Source: a bacterium (GTDB lineage: Bacteria; Patescibacteriota; Minisyncoccia; Phycocordibacterales; JBBTRF01). From it: a DNA stretch of 61,424 nt. Location: contig JBAXTI010000002.1 in the NCBI GenBank assembly GCA_037130265.1, positions 92,870-154,293 of the forward strand, given 5' to 3'. Under the pieces are notes generated by a model. That model saw only the letters and a program-made list of their open reading frames with translations. It ran no database searches and had not been told where the DNA came from. Positions 2,039 to 59,550 of the stretch are shown piece by piece (within the stretch, counting starts at the first letter, position 1; the number at the start of each line of letters is the position of its first letter). The position numbers were made by a program, and so were the translations under genes.

Positions 2039-3034
2039 ATGCTCAACCCTGCACAAAAACTCAACCCAAAGCTTTGGGATAAAGATGTCGAACAACTGCC
2101 AATCCGCAAGGGGTTTGGTGAGGGTTTGCTTGCTGCTGCCGAGATGGATGCGAATGTTGTGGGGTTGTGTGCGGACCTGACGGAATCGACCCAGATGCAC
2201 CTCTTCAAGAAAAAGTTTCCAGAGCGGTTTGTGGAGATGGGTGTCGCTGAACAGAACATGGCGAGCGTCGCTAGCGGCATGGCGGCGATGGGGAAGATTC
2301 CGTTCATTACCTCGTATGCGATGTTTTCTCCAGGCCGAAATTGGGAGCAAATTCGTACGACGATTGCATACAACAATCAGCCGGTGAAAATCGCGGGTTC
2401 ACATGCAGGGATTTCGGTGGGCCCAGACGGCGGTACGCATCAGGCGATAGAGGACATGGCACTCACGCGGATTATTCCTAAAATGGTGGTGATTTCGCCG
2501 TGTGATGCCATCGAGGCGCGCAAGGCGACCATTGCGCTCGCGAAGACAAAGCACCCGACGTACATTCGCCTTGCGCGCGAGAAAACTCCGGTGATGACCA
2601 CCAATGACTCGCCCTTTGAGATTGGCAAAGCACAAATTCTCTGGCAGCCGGCCGTGGGGAAGTCTGAAGTCGGGATCATTGCCACTGGTGCACTCGTATA
2701 CAAAGCATTGAAAGTCGCACGCGAACTCGAAAAAGAGAAGATCGGAGTGACTGTGCTCAATCTGGCAACTATCAAACCACTCGATGGAAAAGCGATCATC
2801 CGCCTCGCGCGCGAATGTGGACGCATTGTAACCGTCGAAGAGCATCAGATCGCTGGTGGCATGGGGAGCGCGGTTGCAGAACTGCTCGCGCGCGAGCATC
2901 CGGTGCCAATGGAATTCATCGGCGTTCATGACGTCTTTGGTCAATCTGGTACACCTGACGAGCTCATTGAGCACTATGGGATGGGAGAGTCGCATATTGC
3001 GGCCGCAGTTCGAAAGATTTTGAAAAGAAAGTAG
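2039..3034 (+). CDS. transketolase, C-terminal (pyrimidine-binding) subunit
   Basis: Track ORF 1949..3034 trimmed to the ATG at 2039 (MLNPAQKLNPKLWD..). FVEMGVAEQNMASVASGMA and GSHAGISVGPDGGTHQAIEDMA are typical of the C-terminal section. Confidence 0.9.
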   Translation: MLNPAQKLNPKLWDKDVEQLPIRKGFGEGLLAAAEMDANVVGLCADLTESTQMHLFKKKFPERFVEMGVAEQNMASVASGMAAMGKIPFITSYAMFSPGRNWEQIRTTIAYNNQPVKIAGSHAGISVGPDGGTHQAIEDMALTRIIPKMVVISPCDAIEARKATIALAKTKHPTYIRLAREKTPVMTTNDSPFEIGKAQILWQPAVGKSEVGIIATGALVYKALKVARELEKEKIGVTVLNLATIKPLDGKAIIRLARECGRIVTVEEHQIAGGMGSAVAELLAREHPVPMEFIGVHDVFGQSGTPDELIEHYGMGESHIAAAVRKILKRK

Positions 3035-3067
3035 TAGAAAAAATGATATCCCGATGTCCGACGCTTC

Positions 3068-4159: not shown

Positions 4160-4212
4160 GCCCGCGGATTTTGCATACAAAAGTATGAAGAAAGTATGCA
4201 AAATCCGCGGGC
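4160..4212. repeat. perfect palindromic repeat, copy 1 (CCCGCGGATTTTGCATAC-N15-GTATGCAAAATCCGCGGG)
   Basis: 18-19 bp perfect arms at 4161-4178 and 4194-4211. The loop AAAAGTATGAAGAAA is the reverse complement of the loops in copies 2 and 3. Lies between divergent pfkB-like and fba genes. Confidence 0.9.
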
Positions 4213-6464: not shown

Positions 6465-7163
6465 ATGATTACCTTACACATCGAGCCTCGAGAAAAGGCA
6501 CAAAAGCTGGACGCATTACGCCAGACAGGCAAAATGCCAGCAGTATTTTATGGCCGAAAGGAGAAGGCGACTTCTGTCGCGGTCTCTCAGGCAGAATTTA
6601 CCAAGGTCTACAAAAAGGCCGGTGACTCTTCTATTATTGAGCTCAAGGATGTGAAAGGTGGCGAACATCAGGCACTGATCAAAGAGGTGGATGTTCATCC
6701 CCTCACTGGTGATTTTCGACACGCTGATTTTTATGTAATTGAAAAGGACAAGAAGCTCCAGATTGAGGTGCCAATGCATTTCGTCGGCATCGCTCCGGCG
6801 GTCAAGGATTTCGGCGGTATTCTCGTGAAGGTGCAGCACGCGTTGAAGATCGAAGCATTGCCAAAGGATCTTCCTCAGGCAGTGGAGGTCAACATCAGTT
6901 CTCTCGCTACTTTGGACAGCCAGATCCTCGCCAAGGATGTCGTGCTTCCAGCAAACGTTGCTCTCGTACAGCGTGCAGAAGACGTTGTTGCGTCTATCGC
7001 AAAGCCAGTTGAAGAGAAGGAAGAGGTGGTCGCAGCTCCAGACCTCGCAGCGATCGAGATCTCAGACAAGAAGGGCAAGAAGCCTGAAGAGGGCGCAGAA
7101 GGTGCTGCTACAGCTCCTGCTGGTGGTGCAAAGGACGCAAAGGCTGCTCCAGCGAAGAAGTAA
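6465..7163 (+). CDS. rplY: 50S ribosomal protein L25/Ctc with low-complexity C-terminal tail
   Basis: KMPAVFYGRKE and DVHPLTGDFRHADFY match the L25/Ctc fold. The tail is Ala/Lys-rich. Confidence 0.9.
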   Translation: MITLHIEPREKAQKLDALRQTGKMPAVFYGRKEKATSVAVSQAEFTKVYKKAGDSSIIELKDVKGGEHQALIKEVDVHPLTGDFRHADFYVIEKDKKLQIEVPMHFVGIAPAVKDFGGILVKVQHALKIEALPKDLPQAVEVNISSLATLDSQILAKDVVLPANVALVQRAEDVVASIAKPVEEKEEVVAAPDLAAIEISDKKGKKPEEGAEGAATAPAGGAKDAKAAPAKK

Positions 7164-7165
7164 TA

Positions 7166-7270
7166 AGAAAACAAAAACATTTTGGAGGACACGCATAAAT
7201 CCCTACTGGGATTTTGCTCCGGCTCGCGCCAGTCGCGCTCCGCAGTTCCTCCAAAATGTTTTTGTTTTCT
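7166..7270 (+). repeat. nested-hairpin structured repeat, copy A
   Basis: 24-bp perfect basal stem (7166-7189 with 7247-7270) enclosing the family core (..ACGCATAAATCCC-TACT-GGGATTTTGC TCC..). Starts 2 nt after the rplY stop. Confidence 0.85.
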
Positions 7271-7344: not shown

Positions 7345-7395
7345 CCCGCGGATTTTGCATACCTTCTTCATACTTTTGTATGCAAAATCCGCGGG
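7345..7395. repeat. perfect palindromic repeat, copy 2
   Basis: Arms at 7345-7362 and 7378-7395 are identical to copy 1. Loop is CTTCTTCATACTTTT. Ends 54 nt before the 7450 start. Confidence 0.9.
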
Positions 7396-9156: not shown

Positions 9157-9180
9157 GTTTGGCTCAAGGCGAAGTTGGTA

Positions 9181-10167
9181 ATGGATCTCCAAAAGCACAA
9201 GCAGAATCATAAGACGTCATATCTCGCAGAAAGCTGGGAGCGTTTGGACGTGGAAGAAAAAGAACTTCGTGGCATGATTGAAAAGGATGCCGGCTTCGCT
9301 GAATTGGGCGCCAAAGAACTCGAAACCATCGCTGAGCAGAAGAAGGCTCTCGAGGCACAATTGAAGCAGATCGAAGATGCCGACAAGGAGGAGGAAGAGT
9401 TTCCAAATGAAATCGTCATGGAAGTTCGAGCTGGTGCTGGTGGGGAAGAGGCGGCATTGTTTGCGCAAAAATTGGCTGAAATGTATCAGCGTTTCTGCGA
9501 GACGAGAGGTTGGTCTTTCCATCCGCTCGATGAATCTGAAAGCTCTCTTGGGGGCTTCAAAGAAGCGGCTTTTGAAGTGCGTGGCAAGGATGTATACAAA
9601 CTTCTCCGTTTTGAGACAGGTGTGCATCGTATCCAGCGTGTGCCACCCACTGAAAAGATGGGACGCGTACATACCTCGACTGCCTCCGTCGCAATTCTCC
9701 CAATGCGCAAGAAGGTCAATGTTGATATCAGCCCAGCCGATATTCATATGGAATTCTCCCGAGCCGGCGGCAAGGGTGGCCAGAACGTGAACAAGGTGGA
9801 AACCGCCGTGCGTCTCCTCCACAAGCCATCAGGTATCGATGTGCGTTGTACCAGCGAGCGTAGTCAGGCGAAGAATCGCGAGAAGGCGATGAGTATCTTG
9901 GCAGCCAAGATTGCCCGACTCCGCGAGGAAGAAGCTGCTGCCAAATACTCTGGCAACCGTTCGTCCCAGATCGGCACGGCTAGTCGCTCCGAAAAGATTC
10001 GTACTTACAACATTCTCCAGGACCGCGTCACCGACCATCGTATCAAGCAATCTTGGCACAATATCGAAGGCATCTTCCGTGGCGAAATCGACGACATTAT
10101 TCAGGCCGTCTGCGAGGCGGGAGGCGGTACCGCTCCTGCTGAAGAGGGGGAGACTGATAGCGAATAA
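9181..10167 (+). CDS. prfA: peptide chain release factor 1
   Basis: GGQ motif ([18 protein letters not shown]) and an RF1-type RVPPTE tripeptide region. The track start at 9175 is TTG; the ATG is at 9181. Confidence 0.9.
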
Positions 10168-10279
10168 GAGGGAGGTACAAGCATTTTGACGAACCTCTCG
10201 CAGGCCGACGGGCCGAGCAGGAGGCAAAAACCTAGCAAGGTTTTATGCCGTGTTCGGGAAAATGCTTGTACCTCCCTCT
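10167..10279 (-). repeat. nested-hairpin structured repeat, copy D (inverted orientation)
   Basis: 21-bp perfect basal stem (10167-10187 with 10259-10279). The core matches the family only as its reverse complement (ACGGCATAAAACC-TTGCTA-GGTTTTTGCC TCC..). Confidence 0.85.
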
Positions 10280-14104: not shown

Positions 14105-14800
14105 ATGAAGACATCGACCAAAGAGCAGCTCAACCAACTGCTGGCTCAGCTGCTAGTTACCGCCGACAACCGCAAAATGAGCCATGACCAGATGCAGATG
14201 GCTATCAAGGACACTGCTGGTCTGGCCGAACGCTTCCACGCGTTCATCGACGGCTACGAGGTGCAAACGACCACTCCATCGAGCATCCCCCTCGCTGCTC
14301 ACAAGGCGCGCGCCATGTCGGAGCTCTTCCGCGATGGCAACGGCGTGAAATACTACTACCGCGACGGTGATCTGGACGACTGGTTCACCGCCAACTCCCC
14401 GGAGTGTCTGGCTGGCACCGCGCGCTTCGTCGAGACACCGAAGGTGATGACGTTCAAGCATATGGCACAGTGGGTCACTGGACTCCAGTCAGAGTCCTTT
14501 GCCGACCTCTCCCGTGCCATCGTCGCTCAAAACCTCTACCTCACTCCCGAACAGTGGAACGATCAGATCGTCGCCACCCAAAAAGGCGAGGATATCCTGC
14601 TCACCAACGGCTACGCCTCCTTCGCTTTTGCGCGGACAGGCAAGAAACTCAAGGACGAGAAAGGTGGGGAATACGACGAAGTAGTCATGTTCGACGCCGA
14701 CCGCAGCGACGACGGCCGGTGGCACGCCTACGTCCACGGGCTCGGCTTCGACGGCGGGTGGGATGCCGACTTCGGGCTCCTGCTTCGCAACTCGCCCTAG
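14105..14800 (+). CDS. DGR variable (target) protein 1, 231 aa
   Basis: The last 36 codons form VR1. Paralogous to the 21734-22474 product from MSELFR.. onward. No obvious signal peptide. Confidence 0.85.
   Translation: MKTSTKEQLNQLLAQLLVTADNRKMSHDQMQMAIKDTAGLAERFHAFIDGYEVQTTTPSSIPLAAHKARAMSELFRDGNGVKYYYRDGDLDDWFTANSPECLAGTARFVETPKVMTFKHMAQWVTGLQSESFADLSRAIVAQNLYLTPEQWNDQIVATQKGEDILLTNGYASFAFARTGKKLKDEKGGEYDEVVMFDADRSDDGRWHAYVHGLGFDGGWDADFGLLLRNSP
14687..14793 (+). repeat. DGR variable repeat VR1
   Basis: Colinear with TR 15070-15176. By hand count, 16 differences all at TR adenines, plus one T-to-G difference at the 5' edge. Confidence 0.9.
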
Positions 14801-14829
14801 GGCCCTTGGACACTTTGTCCCTTCGGCCC
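14800..14829 (+). other. GC-rich nested stem-loop immediately 3' of VR1 (candidate DGR target-recognition hairpin)
   Basis: GGGCC..[GGACA-CTT-TGTCC]..GGCCC. The inner hairpin and its flanks are conserved after VR2 (22480-22505). Confidence 0.6.
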
Positions 14830-14842
14830 CTTCAAATCACTT

Positions 14843-14876
14843 CGCCCAGCATTCCGATGCTGGGCGATTCTTTTTT
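14843..14876 (+). terminator. intrinsic terminator of target gene 1
   Basis: CGCCCAGCAT-TCCG-ATGCTGGGCG followed by ATTCTTTTTT. Nearly identical copy at 22517-22550. Confidence 0.8.
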
Positions 14877-15069
14877 GTATTTTTGAACTTATTTTATATA
14901 ATCAAGCTAAGAATTTGCTGGCATGCTCGGCGAAATCTTAGTGTGGCGAATTCTGCAACATTCAAAAAAAGAAATAGTTGGTGCCTCGCTCTAGCGAGAA
15001 ACAGTCTCGGTATACAATTCAGCCCGAAGAGTATTCGATGGGCAGTGTCACAGATGGGGCGAGGTACAA

Positions 15070-15176
15070 ATGTTCTACGCCAACCGCAACGACGACGGCC
15101 GGTGGAACGCCAACGTCAACAGGCTCGACAACGACAACGAGTGGAATGCCGACAACAGGCTCCTGCTTCGCAACTC
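15070..15176 (+). repeat. DGR template repeat (TR)
   Basis: AAC-rich: ATGTTCTACGCCAACCGCAACGACGACGGCCGGTGGAACGCCAACGTCAACAGGCTCGACAACGACAACGAGTGGAATGCCGACAACAGG... Intergenic; donor-like relative to VR1 and VR2. Confidence 0.9.
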
Positions 15177-15192
15177 TTTCTTTTCTCCCGCT

Positions 15193-15537
15193 TTACCGCG
15201 GGAGTTTTTGTTCTAAGTAATTGATCCAGCCATGAAGCATTTGTCCAGCAGCGATCAATTTCTCATTCAATAGGATAAATTTTTTATCCTCGAATATTTT
15301 CATCTCCCAGCCGACAGATAAAAAGAACTTGATAAAGTCCAGATGTTCTTGAGCAGCTGCTATCCGCAATATTTTTTGTTCACCACGATAGTAAGTGGCT
15401 TGGTAAATGAGCTTTAATGTCTCGGTAAAACAGTCCTCGATCTTTGACGCGATACCGAATCGAACTGGCTTCGGTAGGTGTTCGCTATAAGCGAACCACA
15501 AAGAGTAGGTCTCTTTTAAGTGCTGGAGCACTGGCAA
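15193..15537 (-). CDS. avd: Avd-like accessory variability determinant (four-helix-bundle family), TTG start
   Basis: 114 aa, helical (..YSLWFAYSEHLPKPVRFGIASKIEDCFTETLKLIYQATY..LHGWINYLEQK). Size, position next to TR and RT, and family resemblance support the call. Encoded on the strand opposite TR and RT. Confidence 0.7.
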   Translation of the reverse strand: MPVLQHLKETYSLWFAYSEHLPKPVRFGIASKIEDCFTETLKLIYQATYYRGEQKILRIAAAQEHLDFIKFFLSVGWEMKIFEDKKFILLNEKLIAAGQMLHGWINYLEQKLPR

Positions 15538-15568
15538 AATCGTTCGGGGGGGGGGTAGACTTCTGAGG

Positions 15569-16588
15569 GTGAGAATTCAATTGGTTCATGTCTACGAAGA
15601 TATCATATCTGTCGAAAATCTGCTTCTTGCGTGGCGTGAATTTGTGAGTGGTAAGAAACAAAAGAAGGATGCGCAGGAGTTCTCGCTTCGGCTCATGGAT
15701 AACATCTTCGAGCTTCATGCGGAGTTGGCAGCTAAGACATATACTCACTCCGCTTACAAAGCATTTTCGATTTCCGATCCGAAGCCCCGCAGTATTCACA
15801 AGGCGTTGGTGCGAGACCGGCTTTTGCATCATGCTTTGTATCGAAAATTATACCCATTCTTTGACCGGACTTTTATCAGCGATTCGTATTCATGTCGGCG
15901 CTTCAAGGGTACCCATCGAGCGATCGACCGCTTCAGAGTGTTTGGGCGGAAAGTCTCGCGCAACCATACTCGCACCTGCTGGGTGCTCAAATGCGATATT
16001 CGAAAATTCTTTGCTTCCGTGGACCATGCCATTCTTCTGGATATTCTTAGAAAGTACATTGCGGATAGAGATGCTCTTTGGCTTATCGAGCGGGTGATCT
16101 TTAGTTTTCATAGCACCGCGGGAGGGAGGGGACTGCCTCTCGGCAACCTCACCTCTCAACTTCTGGTGAATGTCTATATGAATGAGTTCGATCAATTCAT
16201 GAAGCACCGACTCAAGACGAGATACTATATTCGTTATGCCGACGACTTTGTAATTTTGTCCGATCAAAAACAAGTTCTTGAGAGTACCTTGTCGGAAATT
16301 GGACATTTTTTGGTACAGCAACTACAACTTTCACTTCATCCCGACAAGGTCTCTATAAAAACACTGGCCTCAGGTGTCGATTTTCTTGGGTGGGTGCACT
16401 TTCCGCACCACAGGGTACTGCGAACCGTGACAAAGCGGCGAATGTTCAAACGGCTTGCCTCGACGGCTTCCATGGAGCCATTGTCAGCCCTTGCAACTGT
16501 TCGTTCCTACCTTGGTTTGCTCAGTCATGGAAACGCTCACTATCTCCGTGAAAAAGTCGCACAATACGAGCGGAATATGCTAAAATGA
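15569..16588 (+). CDS. DGR-type reverse transcriptase (GTG start)
   Basis: 339 aa. DIRKFFASVDH, LPLGNLTSQLLVNVYMNEFD (the IGNLTSQ-type motif diagnostic of DGR RTs) and YIRYADDFVIL (YxDD). Confidence 0.9.
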   Translation: MRIQLVHVYEDIISVENLLLAWREFVSGKKQKKDAQEFSLRLMDNIFELHAELAAKTYTHSAYKAFSISDPKPRSIHKALVRDRLLHHALYRKLYPFFDRTFISDSYSCRRFKGTHRAIDRFRVFGRKVSRNHTRTCWVLKCDIRKFFASVDHAILLDILRKYIADRDALWLIERVIFSFHSTAGGRGLPLGNLTSQLLVNVYMNEFDQFMKHRLKTRYYIRYADDFVILSDQKQVLESTLSEIGHFLVQQLQLSLHPDKVSIKTLASGVDFLGWVHFPHHRVLRTVTKRRMFKRLASTASMEPLSALATVRSYLGLLSHGNAHYLREKVAQYERNMLK

Positions 16589-19200: not shown

Positions 19201-21417
<2,217 letters not shown>

Positions 21418-21535
21418 GAAGAGAATACAAAGGCATTTCTCAGAGCACGGAATAAAACCTTGCTAGGTTTTTTCCTCCTGCTCGACCCCTACGGGTCTGC
21501 GCAGAGGCTCTTCGAAATGCCTTTGTATTCTCTTC
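21418..21535 (+). repeat. nested-hairpin structured repeat, copy E
   Basis: 22-bp perfect basal stem (21418-21439 with 21514-21535). Starts at the first nt after the gyrB stop. Confidence 0.85.
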
Positions 21536-21733: not shown

Positions 21734-22474
21734 ATGACGACACCTTATGTTGTCAAAAAATCAGTAGCAAAGCGCAAACCGACGCTCGATGAAGTTCTGA
21801 CCTACATGTCGCGCATCAGCGACCTCGGTCGCCGGTTTACGGAAGGCTCACTTCATCCTACCTCGGTGCTGGATACTCTCCAGTGCATGCAGGAGGGATG
21901 GGGGATAGGATCGGGGATGGAGGAAGTTCCCGCAGAGCAGGTGTCTCGAGGTCGCATTATTCCCCTCTTCGCCCACCAGCCCCGCCCGATGTCGGAGCTT
22001 TTCCGCAACGGCGATGGTGTGGAATACTCCCACCGCGACGGCGATTTCGACCGTTTGTTCACTGCCAACTCCCCGGAGTGTCTGGCTGGCACTGCTCGCT
22101 TGGTCAAAACCCCCAAGGCCATGAAGTTCAAGCAGATGGCCCAGTGGGTGACCGGACTCCAGACGGAGTCCGTCGCCGACCTCGCCCGCGCCATCGTCGC
22201 CCAGAACCTCGACCTCACCCCCGCTCAGTGGGACGATCAGATTGTCGCCACGCAAGCAGGTCAGGACATCCTCCTCACCAACACTTGGGCCAGCTTCGCC
22301 TTCGCGAAGACTGGCAAGAAGCTGAAGGATGAGCAGGGACAGGAATACGACGAAGTGGTCGTGCTCGGTGCCGACCGCAGCGGCGGCGGTCGGTGGCACG
22401 CCGACGTCGACGGGCTCGACTACGGCAGCGAGTGGGATGCCGACAGCAGGCTCCTCCTCCGCAACTCGCCCTAG
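21734..22474 (+). CDS. DGR variable (target) protein 2, 246 aa (remote target)
   Basis: Its C-terminal roughly 165 aa are paralogous to target 1. Carries VR2 and the same downstream hairpin and terminator module. Confidence 0.85.
   Translation: MTTPYVVKKSVAKRKPTLDEVLTYMSRISDLGRRFTEGSLHPTSVLDTLQCMQEGWGIGSGMEEVPAEQVSRGRIIPLFAHQPRPMSELFRNGDGVEYSHRDGDFDRLFTANSPECLAGTARLVKTPKAMKFKQMAQWVTGLQTESVADLARAIVAQNLDLTPAQWDDQIVATQAGQDILLTNTWASFAFAKTGKKLKDEQGQEYDEVVVLGADRSGGGRWHADVDGLDYGSEWDADSRLLLRNSP
22370..22467 (+). repeat. DGR variable repeat VR2
   Basis: Colinear with TR 15079-15176. By hand count, 13 differences at TR adenines and 3 elsewhere (GGC/GGT, CTG/CTC, CTT/CTC). Confidence 0.8.
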
Positions 22475-22516
22475 GGCACTTGGACACTTTGTCCCTTCGG
22501 CCCCCTCAAATCATTT

Positions 22517-22550
22517 CGCCCAGCATTCTGATGCTGGGCGATTCTTTTTT
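22517..22550 (+). terminator. intrinsic terminator of target gene 2
   Basis: CGCCCAGCAT-TCTG-ATGCTGGGCG followed by ATTCTTTTTT. Confidence 0.8.
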
Positions 22551-22587: not shown

Positions 22588-22715
22588 ACGTAGAAGAAAA
22601 CAACACGTCGTTTCGAAGGGCCTCTGCGCAGACCCGTAGGGGTCGAGCAGGAGGCAAAATTCCAGAAGGAATTTATGCCGTGCCCTGAGAAACGACGTGT
22701 TGTTTTCTTCTACGT
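22588..22715 (-). repeat. nested-hairpin structured repeat, copy F (sense to the minus-strand gene that ends at 22720)
   Basis: 27-bp perfect basal stem (22588-22614 with 22689-22715). The core matches copy E as its reverse complement. Confidence 0.85.
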
Positions 22716-22719
22716 ACCT

Positions 22720-23838
22720 TTAGTTGCTCAAATTAACGTACATCTTCCCCTTAATAATATTGTTCGTCTTGTTGGTTTCCTGCACGCTGCCGATTGGGTC
22801 GACGTTGATGACGAATTCATTCTCCGTCTTCTTCAAAATACTATCGAAGCCGAGGGTAAACTGTGCGCGGTCACCAGGGTTCAAGGCAGGCTGGCTGTTC
22901 GACTGGAAGATGTATCCAGGGAAGGTAGGAAGCACAGCGGCGAAGGTCCAATCCTTTGCGGCCTTGGTGCCGAGGTTTACGATCTCAAAACGGATCGCAG
23001 CTCGCTGGTCGGGCTTCACTTCCTTTGCTGGTACGAAAGCAAGAGTCTCTTTGTTGATGTAACCGGTTTCCAAAATGTTGGCGGTCAAGTCGATGCTGCC
23101 ATTCGGGTTGCTCGTGCCCGCAGTCGAGATGCCGGTGCCTGGGATCTGCACAATCTGCGTGTTCTGGAAGCTGCCGTTGATGCCTGTGTTGCTACCAGTG
23201 TTTGAGGTGTTGGTGTTTACCGTATTGTTTGCACCAGTAGTACCAGTGTTCGTATTGGCCGCAGTCTTTACCGGAGGCTTCACTGCATCAGCACTGGTCT
23301 CGCCGGTGATAGTGATGGTTGCACTGGATCGAGTCGATGGAGAAGATTCTTCGTTGCGAGTGAAATACAAGCTGACAGGGAGGTTCACGGTCGCGCCCTT
23401 GGTTGAGTAGCCGACGAGGGCAAGAGAGTTGTCGTTGTTGAGGAAATGGAAAACGGTGTTACAGAAAATGATGTCGTTTGAACCACGACCCACGGCTTCG
23501 AGGTGGACGCCTTCGATGCACGGATAGCTGATGGTGTATGAGCCGCCAACAGGGGAGGTGCTTGAAGTGTCGAGCGCCCACTTGAGAGTGAAGGTGTCGC
23601 CAGAGCCGATGGTGTACGCGTCGCTAGAGACGACGAGTTTCTCGGCAGGGATGAAAACAGAAGAAAGCGAAACGGCTGCTGCGGCAACACCGCGAATGAT
23701 AGCAGGTGTTGCTTTCACGAGACCGAAGCTAATGACGGCCAAAATCGCAATGAGACCAACGATCGACAGGCTCTTCATAGAAGACTCGTGGATCTGCTTG
23801 ATTTTTACAATTTTTGGGTGAATTTCCTTGTTTTCCAT
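22720..23838 (-). CDS. membrane-anchored surface protein with C-terminal CARDB-like domain
   Basis: Trimmed to the ATG at 23838 (MENKEIHPKIVKI..). TM segment LSIVGLIAILAVISFGL, a Thr/Asn-rich linker, and a C-terminal IRFEIVNLGTKAAKDW..NPGDRAQFTLGF..DPIGSVQETNKTNN. Confidence 0.65.
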   Translation of the reverse strand: MENKEIHPKIVKIKQIHESSMKSLSIVGLIAILAVISFGLVKATPAIIRGVAAAAVSLSSVFIPAEKLVVSSDAYTIGSGDTFTLKWALDTSSTSPVGGSYTISYPCIEGVHLEAVGRGSNDIIFCNTVFHFLNNDNSLALVGYSTKGATVNLPVSLYFTRNEESSPSTRSSATITITGETSADAVKPPVKTAANTNTGTTGANNTVNTNTSNTGSNTGINGSFQNTQIVQIPGTGISTAGTSNPNGSIDLTANILETGYINKETLAFVPAKEVKPDQRAAIRFEIVNLGTKAAKDWTFAAVLPTFPGYIFQSNSQPALNPGDRAQFTLGFDSILKKTENEFVINVDPIGSVQETNKTNNIIKGKMYVNLSN

Positions 23839-23907
23839 AGTTGGGGCATTATATACCATAGTGTGGTACTTGTCAAGTGTCGGGCAATGCGCTAGAATGG
23901 TCGAACT

Positions 23908-24624
23908 GTGGCAAAGGAGCAGATTTCCGTGGGCAAGCACTATCTCGCGATCAGCGTGGCTATTCTCTTTTTCTTCATGCTCGGCTCTGTTTTGGGCGTT
24001 TTTGGCCTCTTGCCGCACGATATTCAGCAGGCGGTGCAGCCGAACCCGATCTCGATTTCGAGCCTATTTTCATCCTCTACGAGTCCTACCATGAATCTTC
24101 CCTCCGCTGCGGAGGCCGTTCCTGCCACAAAGGCCGAAGAGCCGGCCGTGCAATACGAGCGTGGTGTGGTGAAGGAGACCCCTCTGCATATCTCGATCCC
24201 AAAGATTGGTGTGAGTGTGGCAGTGAAGAATCCTACGAGTACGAACGCAGCTGTGCTGGACGCAGCTCTCATGGAAGGTGCGGTGCGGTATCCGACTTCT
24301 GGCTTGCTTGGCGAGTCGAAGAATGTGTTTCTTTTTGGTCACAGCGCTTATTCACGAGTGATCAAGAACCGCGCATACCACACTTTTGATGGCGTAGAGA
24401 AATTGGTAGAAGGGGATGAGGTGTATGTAGATAGTCTCGACGCGCGCTATGTCTACAAAGTCGTGCGCGTCTCGTTTTTGAAGGATGTCGACGCCTATAT
24501 CGACCTCGAAAGCGACGTGCGTATGCTCACCCTTTCCACTTGTAATGCGGTCGGAGCCAAAGATGATCGCGTCGTGGTGCAGTCTCGATTTATCAAGAAA
24601 ATGCCGATTCCGTTGGCCAACTAG
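23908..24624 (+). CDS. sortase family transpeptidase
   Basis: LFGHSAY (catalytic His region) and MLTLSTC (TLxTC Cys motif), with an N-terminal TM. Alternative start: GTG at 23929, preceded by AAGGAG. Confidence 0.8.
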   Translation: MAKEQISVGKHYLAISVAILFFFMLGSVLGVFGLLPHDIQQAVQPNPISISSLFSSSTSPTMNLPSAAEAVPATKAEEPAVQYERGVVKETPLHISIPKIGVSVAVKNPTSTNAAVLDAALMEGAVRYPTSGLLGESKNVFLFGHSAYSRVIKNRAYHTFDGVEKLVEGDEVYVDSLDARYVYKVVRVSFLKDVDAYIDLESDVRMLTLSTCNAVGAKDDRVVVQSRFIKKMPIPLAN

Positions 24625-44200: not shown

Positions 44201-44515
44201 ATGCAAGTAGAACATGATGCGCAGTTTCTCGAGTATTCCATCAAGGCGCTGGTAGACAATCCGAACGATGTAAAAATAGTGCGAACTGTCGACGAAATGG
44301 GCGTTCTTTTGACTCTCACTGTAAACCCGGCAGACATGGGTAAGATTATCGGCCGAATGGGTAATACCGCGAAGGCGATTCGAACATTGCTCCGCGTGGT
44401 CGGCATGAAGAACAATGCTCGTGTGAATTTGAAGATCAACGAACCAGAAGGTGGCATGCGCTCAGAGCGACCATCGAAGACTGTCGATGAGGCGATGGCG
44501 GATTTGAAGATCTAA
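44201..44515 (+). CDS. KH-domain RNA-binding protein (UPF0109/YlqC-like)
   Basis: GKIIGRMGNTAKAIRTLL is a GxxG KH motif. Sits in the usual position after rpsP. Confidence 0.8.
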   Translation: MQVEHDAQFLEYSIKALVDNPNDVKIVRTVDEMGVLLTLTVNPADMGKIIGRMGNTAKAIRTLLRVVGMKNNARVNLKINEPEGGMRSERPSKTVDEAMADLKI

Positions 44516-44535: not shown

Positions 44536-44640
44536 AAAAAGAGCTTACCTCTGGAGACACGCCGTAAATCCTTGCTAGGATTTCGGCTCCGCTCGCCACC
44601 GTCGTGGCTGCGCGAGGTCTCCATCGAGCAAGCTCTTTTT
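44536..44640 (+). repeat. nested-hairpin structured repeat, copy B
   Basis: Basal arms AAAAAGAGCTT and AAGCTCTTTTT with an internal loop. The core is nearly identical to copy C. Confidence 0.85.
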
Positions 44641-44694: not shown

Positions 44695-44751
44695 GTACCC
44701 GCGGATTTTGCATACTTTCTTCATACTTTGGTATGCAAAATCCGCGGGTAC
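44695..44751. repeat. perfect palindromic repeat, copy 3 (arms extended to 21 bp)
   Basis: GTACCCGCGGATTTTGCATAC-TTTCTTCATACTTTG-GTATGCAAAATCCGCGGGTAC. Ends 117 nt before trmD. Confidence 0.9.
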
Positions 44752-57076: not shown

Positions 57077-58294
57077 ATGAAGAAACAATCAAAAACCAAT
57101 CAAAAGAAGCTCAAAAAGGCCTCAAAAACGCCTAAAAAGGCCCCTAAGAAGGTTGTTTCTAGTAAAGCGGTCAAAGTCACAGCAAAGCCAGCTCCGAAGC
57201 TCCGTGGGGCTAAAAAGGCCGAAGATTTCGAAATCCGTACTCTCCGGCTCATGGCCAAGGGCAAGGATCGTGGCTTCGTGACCTATGATGAGATTTTGAA
57301 GGAGTTTCCTCACATCGAAGACGACATCACTTTCCTTGATGAATTGTATGGCAAGCTCAGTACTTCCGGCATTGATGTGCTCGAAGGTGGTGGCATGCTC
57401 GATATCAAGAACGAAGATTTGATTGTCGAGAAGAAGCATAGCTACGGTGGCAAGTCAGAGTCTTCATACGATTCCATTCAGATGTATTTGAAGGAGATCG
57501 GTCAGTACCCACTCATTCCTGCGACTGAAGAGAAGGAGCTCGCGCGACGCATTGAGAAGGGCGACAACGAAGCGAAGAATCTTCTCGCGCGAGCAAACCT
57601 CCGATTGGTGGTTTCTATTGCGAAGAAGTATGTGGGCCGATCACCAGACCTCACCTTGCTCGACCTCATTCAGGAAGGTAACCTCGGATTGTTTAAGGCC
57701 GTCGACAAGTTTGATTGGACAAAGGGATACAAGTTTTCAACCTATGCTACATGGTGGATTCGCCAGGCGATCACTCGTGCGCTCGCTGACCAGTCTCGAA
57801 CTATTCGTGTGCCGGTGCACATGGTGGAGACCATTGCGAAGTACAAGCAAGTGGTCCGACGACTCTCTCAGGACCTCGGACGTGATCCATTGCCGGAAGA
57901 GATTGCGGTAGAAATGGGACTTGATGTTGAGAAGGTGTATCAGATCGAGAAGATCGATCAGGACACTGTTTCATTGGAAAGCCCAGTTGGCGACGACGGC
58001 GATGAGAAGTCGGTGCTTGGCGACTTTTTGCCAGATGACAAGATTCTCTCGCCTGCCGAGGAATCTTCACGACGTATTTTGTCCGATCAGGTGAAAGAGA
58101 TTTTGAGCGATTTGTCTGAAAAGGAGCGTGAGATTTTGGAAATGCGACACGGCTTGGTGGACGGCATCACTCATACACTTGAGGAAGTGGGGCAGAAGTT
58201 CGGCGTCACTCGCGAGCGTATCCGACAGATTGAAGCAAAGGCTCATGAGAAGATTCGACAGCACGAGAAGATTAATCAGTTGAAGAATTACTAA
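57077..58294 (+). CDS. rpoD: RNA polymerase sigma factor RpoD (Lys-rich N-terminus)
   Basis: Region 2 ([40 protein letters not shown]) and region 4 ([22 protein letters not shown]). Confidence 0.95.
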
Positions 58295-58295
58295 A

Positions 58296-58409
58296 AGAAA
58301 ATACAAAGCTCCCTTCCTGAGACACGCCATAAAACCTTGCTAGGATTTTGGCTCCTCTCGCCACCGTCGTGGCTGCGAGAGGTCTCCGTCAGGGAGCTTT
58401 GTCTTTTTT
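58296..58409 (+). repeat. nested-hairpin structured repeat, copy C
   Basis: Stem ACAAAGCTCCCT/AGGGAGCTTTGT plus A/T extensions. Core is ACGCCATAAAACC-TTGCTA-GGATTTTGGC TCC TCTCGCCACCGTCGTGGCTGCGAGAGG. Starts 1 nt after the rpoD stop. Confidence 0.85.
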
Positions 58410-58512
58410 ACTGTGTTTCCTTCGCCCTGCGCGATGTCTCTGAAAAACGTTTTTGTTTTGCTTGCAGTATTTCTTGCAATTGTCGTCTTTCGAAAATGGT
58501 ATAATGGGAGGG

Positions 58513-59550
58513 ATGAAAAAGAAACTCGGACAACCAAAGGTGGCCCAGAAGTCTGGTCACTCAGAATTTCTATTGTACACTGCGCCAAATGGCAAGGTGA
58601 GCGTGGAGATATTCCTGCACAATGAGACTATCTGGCTAACACAGAAGACGCTGTCGGATATTTTTGATTGTTCCGTGGACAATGTTTCACTGCATTTAAA
58701 AAATATCTTTGATGACGGAGAACTTTCCCCCGAGGCAGTTATCGAGGAATTCTCGATAACTGCCAGTGATGGTAAAAAGTACAAGACGAAACACTACAAC
58801 CTCGATGCCATCATCGCTGTCGGCTATCGGGTGAATAGTAAAAGAGCGACCCATTTTCGTATCTGGGCAACGAGTATACTCAAGGAGTATATGATCAAAG
58901 GGTTTGTGATGGATGATCATCGGCTCAAAAATCCAGACGCTACTTTCGGTGGCGATTATTTCGAAGATCAACTTACTCGCATTCGAGATATTCGTTCGAG
59001 TGAACGTAGGTTCTATCAAAAGATTTCTGATATTTATGCGACTGCTATTGATTATGATCCGAACGAAGAATGCACGAGGCAATTTTTCGCTACAGTGCAG
59101 AACAAGCTTCATTTTGCCATAAACGGAAAGACGGCCGCGGAGATTATTCATGAAAGGATAGACAGCACAAAACCGCATCTTGGTTTAACCGCATGGAAAC
59201 ATGGTCCGACTGGGCCGATTCGGAAGATGGATGTGATCGTTGCAAAAAACTACCTCGACCATACAGAATTGGACGGGCTCAATCGTATTGTGACAATGTA
59301 TCTTGATTATGCCGAATCGCAAGCCAAAAGAGGAGTAGCAATGCACATGAGAGATTGGGTAGAAAAACTCAACGCCTTTTTGCAGTTCAATGAAAGAGAA
59401 ATATTGCTTGACAATGGCCTCGTGAGCCACAAGATCGCCGTAGCTTTAGCTGAAGAAGAATTTGAAAAATACAGGATCGTCCAAGATAGGTTGTATGAAA
59501 GCGATTTTGATAAGGAGATGAAGAAGATTTTGGATAAAAAGAAGAAATAG
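58513..59550 (+). CDS. RhuM-family (virulence-protein-like) protein
   Basis: Trimmed to the ATG at 58513. EFLLYTAPNGKVSVEIFLHNETIWLTQKTLSDIF..NLDAIIAVGYRVNSKRATHFRIWATSILKEYMIKGFVMDD is characteristic of RhuM-like proteins. Confidence 0.75.
   Translation: MKKKLGQPKVAQKSGHSEFLLYTAPNGKVSVEIFLHNETIWLTQKTLSDIFDCSVDNVSLHLKNIFDDGELSPEAVIEEFSITASDGKKYKTKHYNLDAIIAVGYRVNSKRATHFRIWATSILKEYMIKGFVMDDHRLKNPDATFGGDYFEDQLTRIRDIRSSERRFYQKISDIYATAIDYDPNEECTRQFFATVQNKLHFAINGKTAAEIIHERIDSTKPHLGLTAWKHGPTGPIRKMDVIVAKNYLDHTELDGLNRIVTMYLDYAESQAKRGVAMHMRDWVEKLNAFLQFNEREILLDNGLVSHKIAVALAEEEFEKYRIVQDRLYESDFDKEMKKILDKKKK

Follow-up and report, generated by a model that had tools for sequence, protein, structure and literature searches.

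A dispersed hairpin repeat with a conserved core at gene 3′ ends in Patescibacteria

Six copies at gene ends in one Patescibacteria contig

We analysed a stretch of 61,424 nucleotides (nt) from a bacterium of the Patescibacteriota (positions 92,870 to 154,293 of contig JBAXTI010000002.1, assembly GCA_037130265.1), hereafter the window, which holds exactly six copies of a nested-hairpin element of ~110 bases at the ends of genes that include rplY, prfA, gyrB and rpoD. A preliminary description, made from the letters alone, had listed these copies and proposed a new structured RNA or a 3′ element resembling a MITE (miniature inverted-repeat transposable element). All six lie where it placed them and carry the sequences it gave. 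A covariance model built from the six copies, searched with filters off on both strands, scored them at 97.5–139.3 bits and recovered these six alone in the window; their opposite-strand echoes reached at most 41.8 bits. The next locus, at 20.3 bits, is an unrelated palindrome and was rejected as a seventh copy. A degenerate pattern of the core matched four copies, with 0 expected by shuffling. The copies and the genes that they adjoin are as follows.

Copy A, 7166–7270, plus strand: whole element, 97.5 bits; starts 3 nt past the rplY stop codon TAA (7161–7163). Neighbour: L25/rplY, 6465–7163.
Copy D, 10167–10279, minus strand: 116.2 bits; in the prfA–rpsB interval, the sole window copy antisense to the gene it abuts. 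Neighbour: RF-1/prfA, 9175–10167.
Copy E, 21418–21535, plus strand: 139.3 bits; begins 1 nt after the gyrB stop codon TAG (21415–21417). Neighbour: GyrB, 19240–21417.
Copy F, 22588–22715, minus strand: 138.5 bits; 3 nt past the stop codon of a CARDB-domain gene. Neighbour: the CARDB-domain gene, 22720–24018, minus strand.
Copy B, 44536–44640, plus strand: 111.9 bits; 17–20 nt past the stop codon of a khpA-like KH gene, upstream of trmD. Neighbour: KhpA-type KH protein, 44201–44515.
Copy C, 58296–58409, plus strand: 106.9 bits; 1 nt past the rpoD stop codon, at the end of the dnaG–rpoD pair. Neighbour: Sigma-70 (rpoD), 57077–58294.

The mapped gene ends agree with the earlier placement of the copies 0–20 nt beyond stop codons, five of six in the sense orientation. 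The gap between stop codon and stem is 0–3 nt in five copies and 17–20 nt in copy B; copy D is the antisense one.

We aligned the six copies with MAFFT: the core is conserved, and the arms are complementary within each copy and differ between copies. All copies take the same fold: the long basal stem, P1, leads through a short helix, P1a, to a three-way junction from which the hairpins P2 and P3 project. Fold energies of the window copies range from −52 to −85 kcal/mol, with z-scores of −6.5 to −13.9 that no shuffle equalled. P1 is locus-specific, 15–30 bp long and, as had been reported, perfectly paired over ~24, 21, 22 and 27–28 bp in A, D, E and F. The view that these stems are only loosely related holds in that the arms differ between copies, but the arms are not arbitrary, the 5′ arm being A-rich and the 3′ arm U-rich. 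Inner P1 contains a few semi-conserved pairs (YAUUU/AAAUR), often followed by a small internal loop, and leads into P1a, of 4–6 bp. Beyond it, the asymmetric three-way junction of ~65 nt is highly conserved in sequence and comprises CAC, P2 with its bulged U and AAA/UUU block, (C)UCC and P3. In the consensus of 87 copies from the wider family (see below), near-invariant bases are the CACG leading into P2, the bulged U, the AAA/UUU block and the U-N-C-U loop of P2, the CUCC, and the CUCG and C-U-G-C-G of P3; P2 is paired in 99.2% across these copies. The string CUGCG(C)AGAGG, previously noted as conserved, is so, but a better description is a UG(CG) bulge together with the 3′ strand of the outer helix of P3 (CUCG/CGAG). 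The parts of copy A are given below.

7166–7189, plus strand: 5′ arm of P1 and P1a, AGAAAACAAAAACATTTTGGAGGA; A-rich; pairs with 7247–7270.
7190–7192, plus strand: junction strand CAC, which with G7193 makes the near-invariant CACG.
7193–7217, plus strand: hairpin P2, GCA-U-AAAUCCC / GGGAUUUUGC; bulged U at 7196, invariant AAA/UUU pairs, UNCU loop.
7218–7220, plus strand: junction strand UCC, which with C7217 makes the conserved CUCC.
7221–7245, plus strand: hairpin P3, an outer helix and a G+C-rich inner helix (GCGC...GCGC), with a 3′ bulge.
7247–7270, plus strand: 3′ arm of P1a and P1, TCCTCCAAAATGTTTTTGTTTTCT; outer part U-rich.

One variant consists of the core alone. The copy at L033 7142–7213 (also L140) scores 59 bits over model positions 31–98 and lacks the long stem P1. 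Its site is an intergenic region between divergent genes, ~270 nt upstream of a minus-strand gene, and it could be either stand-alone or decaying.

Family range, covariation and orthologous sites

The GyrB encoded in the window shares 96% identity with a 'Patescibacteria group' protein of Hainich groundwater assemblies, its next relatives standing at ~77%; close relatives occur in the Hainich H41/H52 series of metagenomes. A one-genome-per-species scan with the core returned 22 loci, of which 20 were confirmed by the model, all in assemblies of Patescibacteria (Saccharibacteria, Paceibacterota, Parcubacteria, Minisyncoccia, Taylorbacteria or unclassified Patescibacteria). Matches in Pseudanabaena and Ruminiclostridium were not confirmed by the covariance model. 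A metagenome scan gave at least 120 loci and, among the matches listed, added ~60 confirmed copies. The covariance-model search of relatives and metagenomes suggested in the preliminary description thus brought out a large Patescibacteria family, with ~90 copies across Patescibacteria contigs and none confirmed elsewhere among the genome and metagenome matches listed. Four pattern matches in IMG/VR were not confirmed by the covariance model, and BLAST against plasmid and phage collections gave no match.

Comparison with Rfam 15 upheld the statement that the core could not be matched to a known RNA family. Only a tRNA matched when the whole window was searched at the gathering score, and at E ≤ 10 over copies E and F the overlaps were long-hairpin miRNA precursor models far below threshold. 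A tRNA-like origin was rejected, ARAGORN finding only two true tRNAs. A literature search that included exact core strings found no description of such an element.

The covariation of several helices reported earlier proved very strong. Compensatory change affects 24 of 38 pairs in the six window copies alone. With 28 copies, double changes occur in 35 of the 38 pairs, and 93.6% of cells are standard-paired as against 38–57% with slid partners. With 87 distinct copies, 37 of the 38 modelled pairs show double compensatory changes and 93.7% of cells are paired, compared with 42–53% in a control in which the 3′ partners were slid by 1–3 columns. None of 500 shuffles attained the observed paired percentage or covariation score, and the 31 column pairs of strongest mutual information are all predicted pairs. 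The same mutual-information analysis revealed no pseudoknot or tertiary pairs beyond the nested helices.

We then compared syntenic relatives (L023/L136, L145, L126, L061 and L008). Four independent orthologous pairs together show 40 compensated pair changes, against 3 one-sided changes and 8 broken pairs; only 0–5 of ~28 unpaired core bases differ, with flanks and P1 sequence saturated. Since pair changes between orthologues are compensated and the unpaired bases invariant, the structure is maintained and so is the core sequence; the copies are not merely recent duplicates. The earlier argument for selection on structure, as opposed to recent duplication, is supported in the same way, with hairpin-templated correction as an alternative. 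At site F, which has orthologues in L023 and L061, the window and L023 copies differ by nine compensated and no uncompensated pair changes, and none of 30 unpaired core bases has changed, with flanks that are about half diverged. The copy at site B is kept in L008, a genome ~70% identical in DNA.

Other sites record turnover. At site D, L126 carries the element in the same orientation with a near-identical core; its arms are wholly different yet perfectly paired, with 13 compensated P1 pairs. The whole element is absent from site D in L023, the closer relative, which implies a clean loss. At site E, L145 has the same element as the window. In L023/L136 the whole element is inverted and chimeric, and in L023, where it is antisense to gyrB, the internal-loop bases follow the core. 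This L023 copy is a chimera, since its outer part resembles copy E and its P2–P3 part is 95% identical to window copy C. A site between convergent transketolase and PfkB genes is filled in L126 (10587–10710) and empty in the window. Among close relatives, then, retention of copies at orthologous sites goes together with loss, inversion and chimerism. Presence/absence differences were found at D, A and the L126 site, and their polarity, where inferable, points to losses. Across 56 kb of syntenic DNA, the element is absent from three relatives whose GyrB is ~75–78% identical. Loss, inversion, chimeras and this patchy distribution lend support to the dispersed or mobile-element role that was among those first offered.

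In the window, the 33-nt transketolase/PfkB spacer (3034–3067) aligns weakly to the 5′ arm and first core bases of the L126 element, and may be the remnant of an internal deletion.

In many pairs of copies the cores are 95–100% identical and the stems much more diverged, with a loose A-rich theme shared. One same-genome pair, L007/L022, was duplicated together with its stem. Because these two share a stem and the stems of paralogues keep the loose theme, the whole element appears to be the duplicated unit, and the stem would then drift under a constraint for pairing only. The shared L007/L022 stem and the common theme of paralogous stems also mean that a model with a mobile core and host-owned stems does not hold in that simple form. 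At sites A and F the outer arms are similar to plain terminators in relatives, so that stems may yet derive from the host.

Taken together, these data show a previously undescribed repeat family, restricted to the Candidate Phyla Radiation (CPR), that is structurally constrained and located at gene 3′ ends.

Terminator-like stems and candidate roles

P1 shares its build with the window's plain terminators, which have an A-tract, a G+C stem and a U-tract (for example, GUAAAAAACGCAC-UUCU-GUGCGUUUUUUAC). Its 5′ arm is 40–59% A and 4–20% T, and its 3′ arm 38–57% T and 3–20% A; A-U pairs outnumber U-A pairs 3- to 17-fold at outer P1 positions of the 87 copies. The arm asymmetry (A-rich 5′, U-rich 3′) therefore holds on the complementary strand also. 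At least six T in an 8-nt window on the 3′ side were found for 58% of copies, compared with 17% of control windows. The features of an intrinsic terminator, a stable stem-loop and a U-rich tract after a stop codon, are present in most copies, though not in D.

Of 92 unique copies, 43 have a long reading frame that ends on their sense side alone, 14 on their antisense side alone, 21 on both sides (convergent genes) and 14 on neither. The 43:14 ratio of sense to antisense departs from equality (binomial p = 1.5e-4), ~25% of the unambiguous copies being antisense to the neighbouring gene. Typically the reading frame stops 16–33 nt before the core, which places the start of P1 ~0–6 nt after the stop codon. 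Orientation relative to replication direction could be assessed at one informative locus only.

Relatives show a positional interchange between the element and plain terminators. At site A, directly after rplY, a plain intrinsic terminator stands in place of the element in L126 and L149, and UUUUUGUUUUCU is common to the U-tract of the L149 rplY terminator and the 3′ arm of copy A (12 nt identical). After the CARDB gene (site F), the element-free L152 has a perfect 20-bp bidirectional plain terminator. The terminator or 3′-end hairpin, one of the roles initially offered, thus has direct comparative support from arm composition, U-tracts and plain terminators at the same sites.

A different structure follows gyrB in another element-free relative, L151 (12110–12195). 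It is a long hairpin with a perfect 13–14 bp stem, GCGAUACCUUUUGU/ACAAAAGGUAUCGC, enclosing an unrelated insert of ~40 nt and followed by a plain terminator, and it may represent another family of 'decorated' terminators.

The reading that we favour, with about even confidence, is a Patescibacteria-specific dispersed hairpin repeat that supplies or decorates intrinsic terminators and 3′-end hairpins, giving 'decorated terminators'. Transcripts of the adjoining gene would carry the element at their 3′ end, and P1, built like the organism's ordinary terminators, would act as an intrinsic terminator or a 3′-end protective hairpin. It could work in either orientation because the stem is a perfect palindrome. 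The conserved cap would be a family-specific module, probably read by a trans-acting factor, for copying of the element or for RNA 3′-end handling. Copies would have arisen by duplication into terminator positions, with stems kept by compensated, possibly hairpin-templated, changes and cores exchanged between copies.

Several observations weigh against this proposal. Copy D has a stem without a U-tract, and some copies lie inside conserved operons (B in khpA–trmD; L099 in rpsG–fusA), where a strong terminator is awkward. The likeness of the U-tracts in UUUUUGUUUUCU is of low complexity and could be convergent. We infer that transcripts end at the elements only from their positional equivalence to the plain terminators of relatives. 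The loci near copies and the 68 copies used for these tests (see below) yielded neither a mobilising protein nor a target-site duplication nor a terminal repeat that is conserved. Finally, a plain hairpin would terminate equally well, which leaves the ~30 near-invariant unpaired core bases and the bias in orientation unexplained. Because the terminator reading does not account for the invariant core and this 3:1 bias, rivals that invoke an RNA module or a DNA enzyme each keep a low probability.

The copy in L099 (1269–1394) stands directly after rpsG inside the conserved str operon, a position at which a fully efficient terminator would be unexpected. L056, L076, L096, L148 and L099 are unrelated contigs in which the element adjoins the genes for ribosomal protein S7 and elongation factor G (EF-G).

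Under the RNA alternative, which we regard as unlikely, the element is primarily a cis-acting structured domain in mRNA 3′ ends, serving as a protein platform, a processing signal or a self-cleaving ribozyme, with P1 as a closing or processing stem. P1 could, for example, be an RNase III substrate that releases the core; perfect stems of 20–28 bp are long enough for RNase III. The clean covariation of several helices accords with such a domain, as do the unpaired bases of junction, bulge and loop, which hardly vary among 87 copies or from orthologue to orthologue, the bias to the sense strand of the abutting gene and the lack of a match to known families. However, the covariation is of the Watson–Crick kind only: G-U pairs make up 14 of 1,005 cells and are not commoner than A-C/C-A (24), and one-sided changes number 3 against 40 double ones between orthologues. 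The opposite strand has the more stable fold in 77 of the 87 copies. About a quarter of copies, D and the L023 copy at gyrB among them, run antisense to their neighbouring gene; close relatives without the element in syntenic regions would be odd for an essential RNA, and pseudoknot or tertiary covariation is absent from the mutual-information signal.

The better folding of the opposite strand is explained in part by a 2 × 2 symmetric internal loop, UC/UC, that lies between P1 and P1a in many copies (including E, F, L023, L145 and L006). On the opposite strand the loop becomes GA/GA, a tandem G-A motif that adds stability.

Given the scarcity of G-U pairs and an opposite strand that folds no worse, this covariation does not demonstrate selection specific to RNA. 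The 'structured RNA' of the preliminary description therefore stands as regards constraint on structure, and its strict status as RNA is not shown, given also the quarter of copies that are antisense. Template switching within quasi-palindromes, in which one arm corrects the other, is a known mutational mechanism. Strand-symmetric covariation fits folding of both transcripts at bidirectional terminators, folding at the DNA level and arm-to-arm correction by template switching, and the data do not discriminate among them.

The same strand symmetry favours a DNA-level element, in which single-stranded DNA hairpins or a cruciform are read by a DNA enzyme and the location at gene ends reflects where insertions are tolerated. 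That role might fall to an HUH/Y1 transposase (REP-RAYT or IS200/IS605 type), a recombinase, a topoisomerase or a nucleoid protein. Both orientations occur, a whole element has been inverted and has acquired a chimeric core at the same site, and a whole palindrome has been cleanly lost. An invariant extrahelical base in a hairpin is found also in the recognition hairpins of IS608 and REP, and we take it as a lead only. On the other hand, neither a Y1/HUH transposase nor another recombinase occurs among recurrent neighbours, and the sequence signatures of REP and attC are missing (see below). The asymmetry of the arms and the tight abutment on stop codons are better explained by transcription, and orientation follows the abutting gene in 75% of unambiguous cases. 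We consider a DNA-level role improbable.

A purely selfish MITE with no host role, decaying neutrally after insertion, is disfavoured and seems to us very improbable. The patchy distribution, presence/absence differences between relatives and many dispersed copies with inverted-repeat ends are what such an element would leave. Yet orthologues persist across 70–86% DNA divergence, with pairing and unpaired core intact and flanks saturated. Conserved terminal inverted repeats were not found; the stem arms are the least conserved part of the element, the reverse of a terminal repeat bound by a transposase. Flanking direct repeats of 2–5 nt occurred near chance, with none at 5 nt, in 68 copies whose boundaries are approximate. 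The proteins that recur near copies are housekeeping ones, namely EF-G, S7, penicillin-binding protein, SecDF, superoxide dismutase and uracil-DNA glycosylase. No transposase, Y1 included, is among recurrent neighbours in the loci with a core match, of up to ~22 kb each. The MITE-like candidate of the preliminary description thus lacks the classical features in arm conservation, target-site duplication and, within these loci, a cognate transposase.

Three known systems were also tried and rejected. A REP/REPIN identity fails on GTAG, which is near the 5′ end in 8 of 68 copies, and on the asymmetry of the core, in which P2 differs from P3. For an integron attC site, R″ (RYYYAAC) and R′ (GTTRRRY) are both present in 0 of 68 copies, and the neighbours are rplY, prfA, gyrB, rpoD, fusA and the like. 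For a retron msr-msd, none of the six copies is adjacent to the only reverse transcriptase of the window (15569–16588); this enzyme is part of a diversity-generating retroelement, which has a template repeat and variable repeats of its own.

That retroelement occupies 14105–16588 and 21734–22543 and encodes the reverse transcriptase as an RVT_1 protein. Its template repeat is at 15037–15176, and variable repeats at the 3′ ends of two paralogues (14654–14793 in gene 14105–14800; 22328–22467 in gene 21734–22474) differ from it at template adenines. The same G+C hairpin with its T-run comes after both variable repeats (14842–14867; ~22518–22543).

More tentatively, and well short of even confidence, the element may be one of two stranger things. 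It may be a new nucleic-acid module of Patescibacteria, such as a self-cleaving or factor-binding RNA that defines mRNA 3′ ends, or a recognition core belonging to a selfish, transposase-free element that passes from terminator to terminator. In the second case, spread could proceed by recombination through generic A-tract/U-tract arms. Terminator-to-terminator spread would explain the lack of target duplications, the two orientations, the chimeric cores and the exclusive residence at terminators.

A second repeat family accompanies the element in the window. It is a perfect palindrome, CCCGCGGATTTTGCATAC, 15 nt and GTATGCAAAATCCGCGGG, with three exact copies at 4161–4211, 7345–7395 and 44698–44748, two of them located 60–75 nt downstream of copies A and B, ahead of the following gene. 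Its arms persist in L126 with a compensated change, and its loop differs there. This palindrome may be an operator, a promoter-associated site or another terminator. Downstream of copy C by 46 nt is a RhuM-family gene (58453–59550; Pfam Virulence_RhuM, E = 3.5e-111), which lies in the window's lowest-G+C segment (45%) and may have been acquired.

Significance and comparison with known systems

Patescibacteria genomes are tiny and streamlined, and to our knowledge almost nothing is known of their non-coding elements or transcript ends. The family follows about one gene in ten in the window, rplY, prfA, gyrB and rpoD included, and fusA and rpsG in other members. With its core under near-absolute constraint, it would be either a significant part of gene expression or a very successful genomic parasite of terminators. 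An apex that is conserved and ends that are free, the reverse of MITEs, together with covariation that is Watson–Crick only, are unusual among bacterial repeats. The family makes it testable whether palindromes are maintained by hairpin-templated mutation or by selection. In practice, the element could serve as a lineage marker for binning CPR contigs, and it is a likely source of assembly breaks and mis-annotated short reading frames.

Among the closest analogues are the REP/BIME/REPIN palindromes of Proteobacteria, which are mobilised by RAYT transposases. They, too, are short, abundant extragenic palindromes at gene 3′ ends or between cistrons, form hairpins that act as terminators or mRNA stabilisers, persist for long at orthologous sites and show compensatory changes in their arms. 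REPs, however, are imperfect palindromes of 20–40 nt with a conserved 5′ GTAG, and REPINs are symmetric doublets. The present element has a conserved asymmetric three-way junction of ~65 nt, locus-specific arms, no conserved GTAG and no sequence similarity to REP, and no RAYT was seen among recurrent neighbours in loci of up to ~22 kb.

Correia elements (Neisseria), ERIC/IRU (Enterobacteria) and BOX/RUP (Streptococcus pneumoniae) are similarly dispersed, 100–150 bp long with inverted ends, and co-transcribed with their neighbours. They form long RNA hairpins, with reported effects on termination, on processing by RNase III or RNase E and on mRNA stability. In these families the terminal inverted repeats are conserved, and Correia duplicates a TA target. 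In the element described here, by contrast, variability is greatest at the termini and conservation greatest at the apex; no target duplication is seen, and the range is Patescibacteria only.

Integron attC sites resemble the element in the conservation of structure over sequence, extrahelical bases, a length of 57–141 nt, a position directly after stop codons and single-strand folding. The element differs in having no R″/R′ sites, housekeeping neighbours in place of cassettes, and no integrase, and in that its conservation lies at the apex and not at the base. Multi-copy RNA motifs and ribozymes (hammerhead, twister, pistol) likewise combine multi-stem junctions with invariant junction bases, covarying stems and many intergenic copies. 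No Rfam 15 model for them matched at E ≤ 10, the CAC and UCC junction strands misfit the hammerhead core, and, unlike these RNAs, the element nearly lacks G-U pairs and folds as well on its opposite strand.

Bidirectional intrinsic terminators share with the element an A-tract, a stem and a U-tract right after the stop codon, in a perfect palindrome usable both ways. Ordinary terminators close on a loop of 3–8 nt, whereas the element carries at that place a structured, conserved insert of ~75–80 nt that is shared among loci and lineages.

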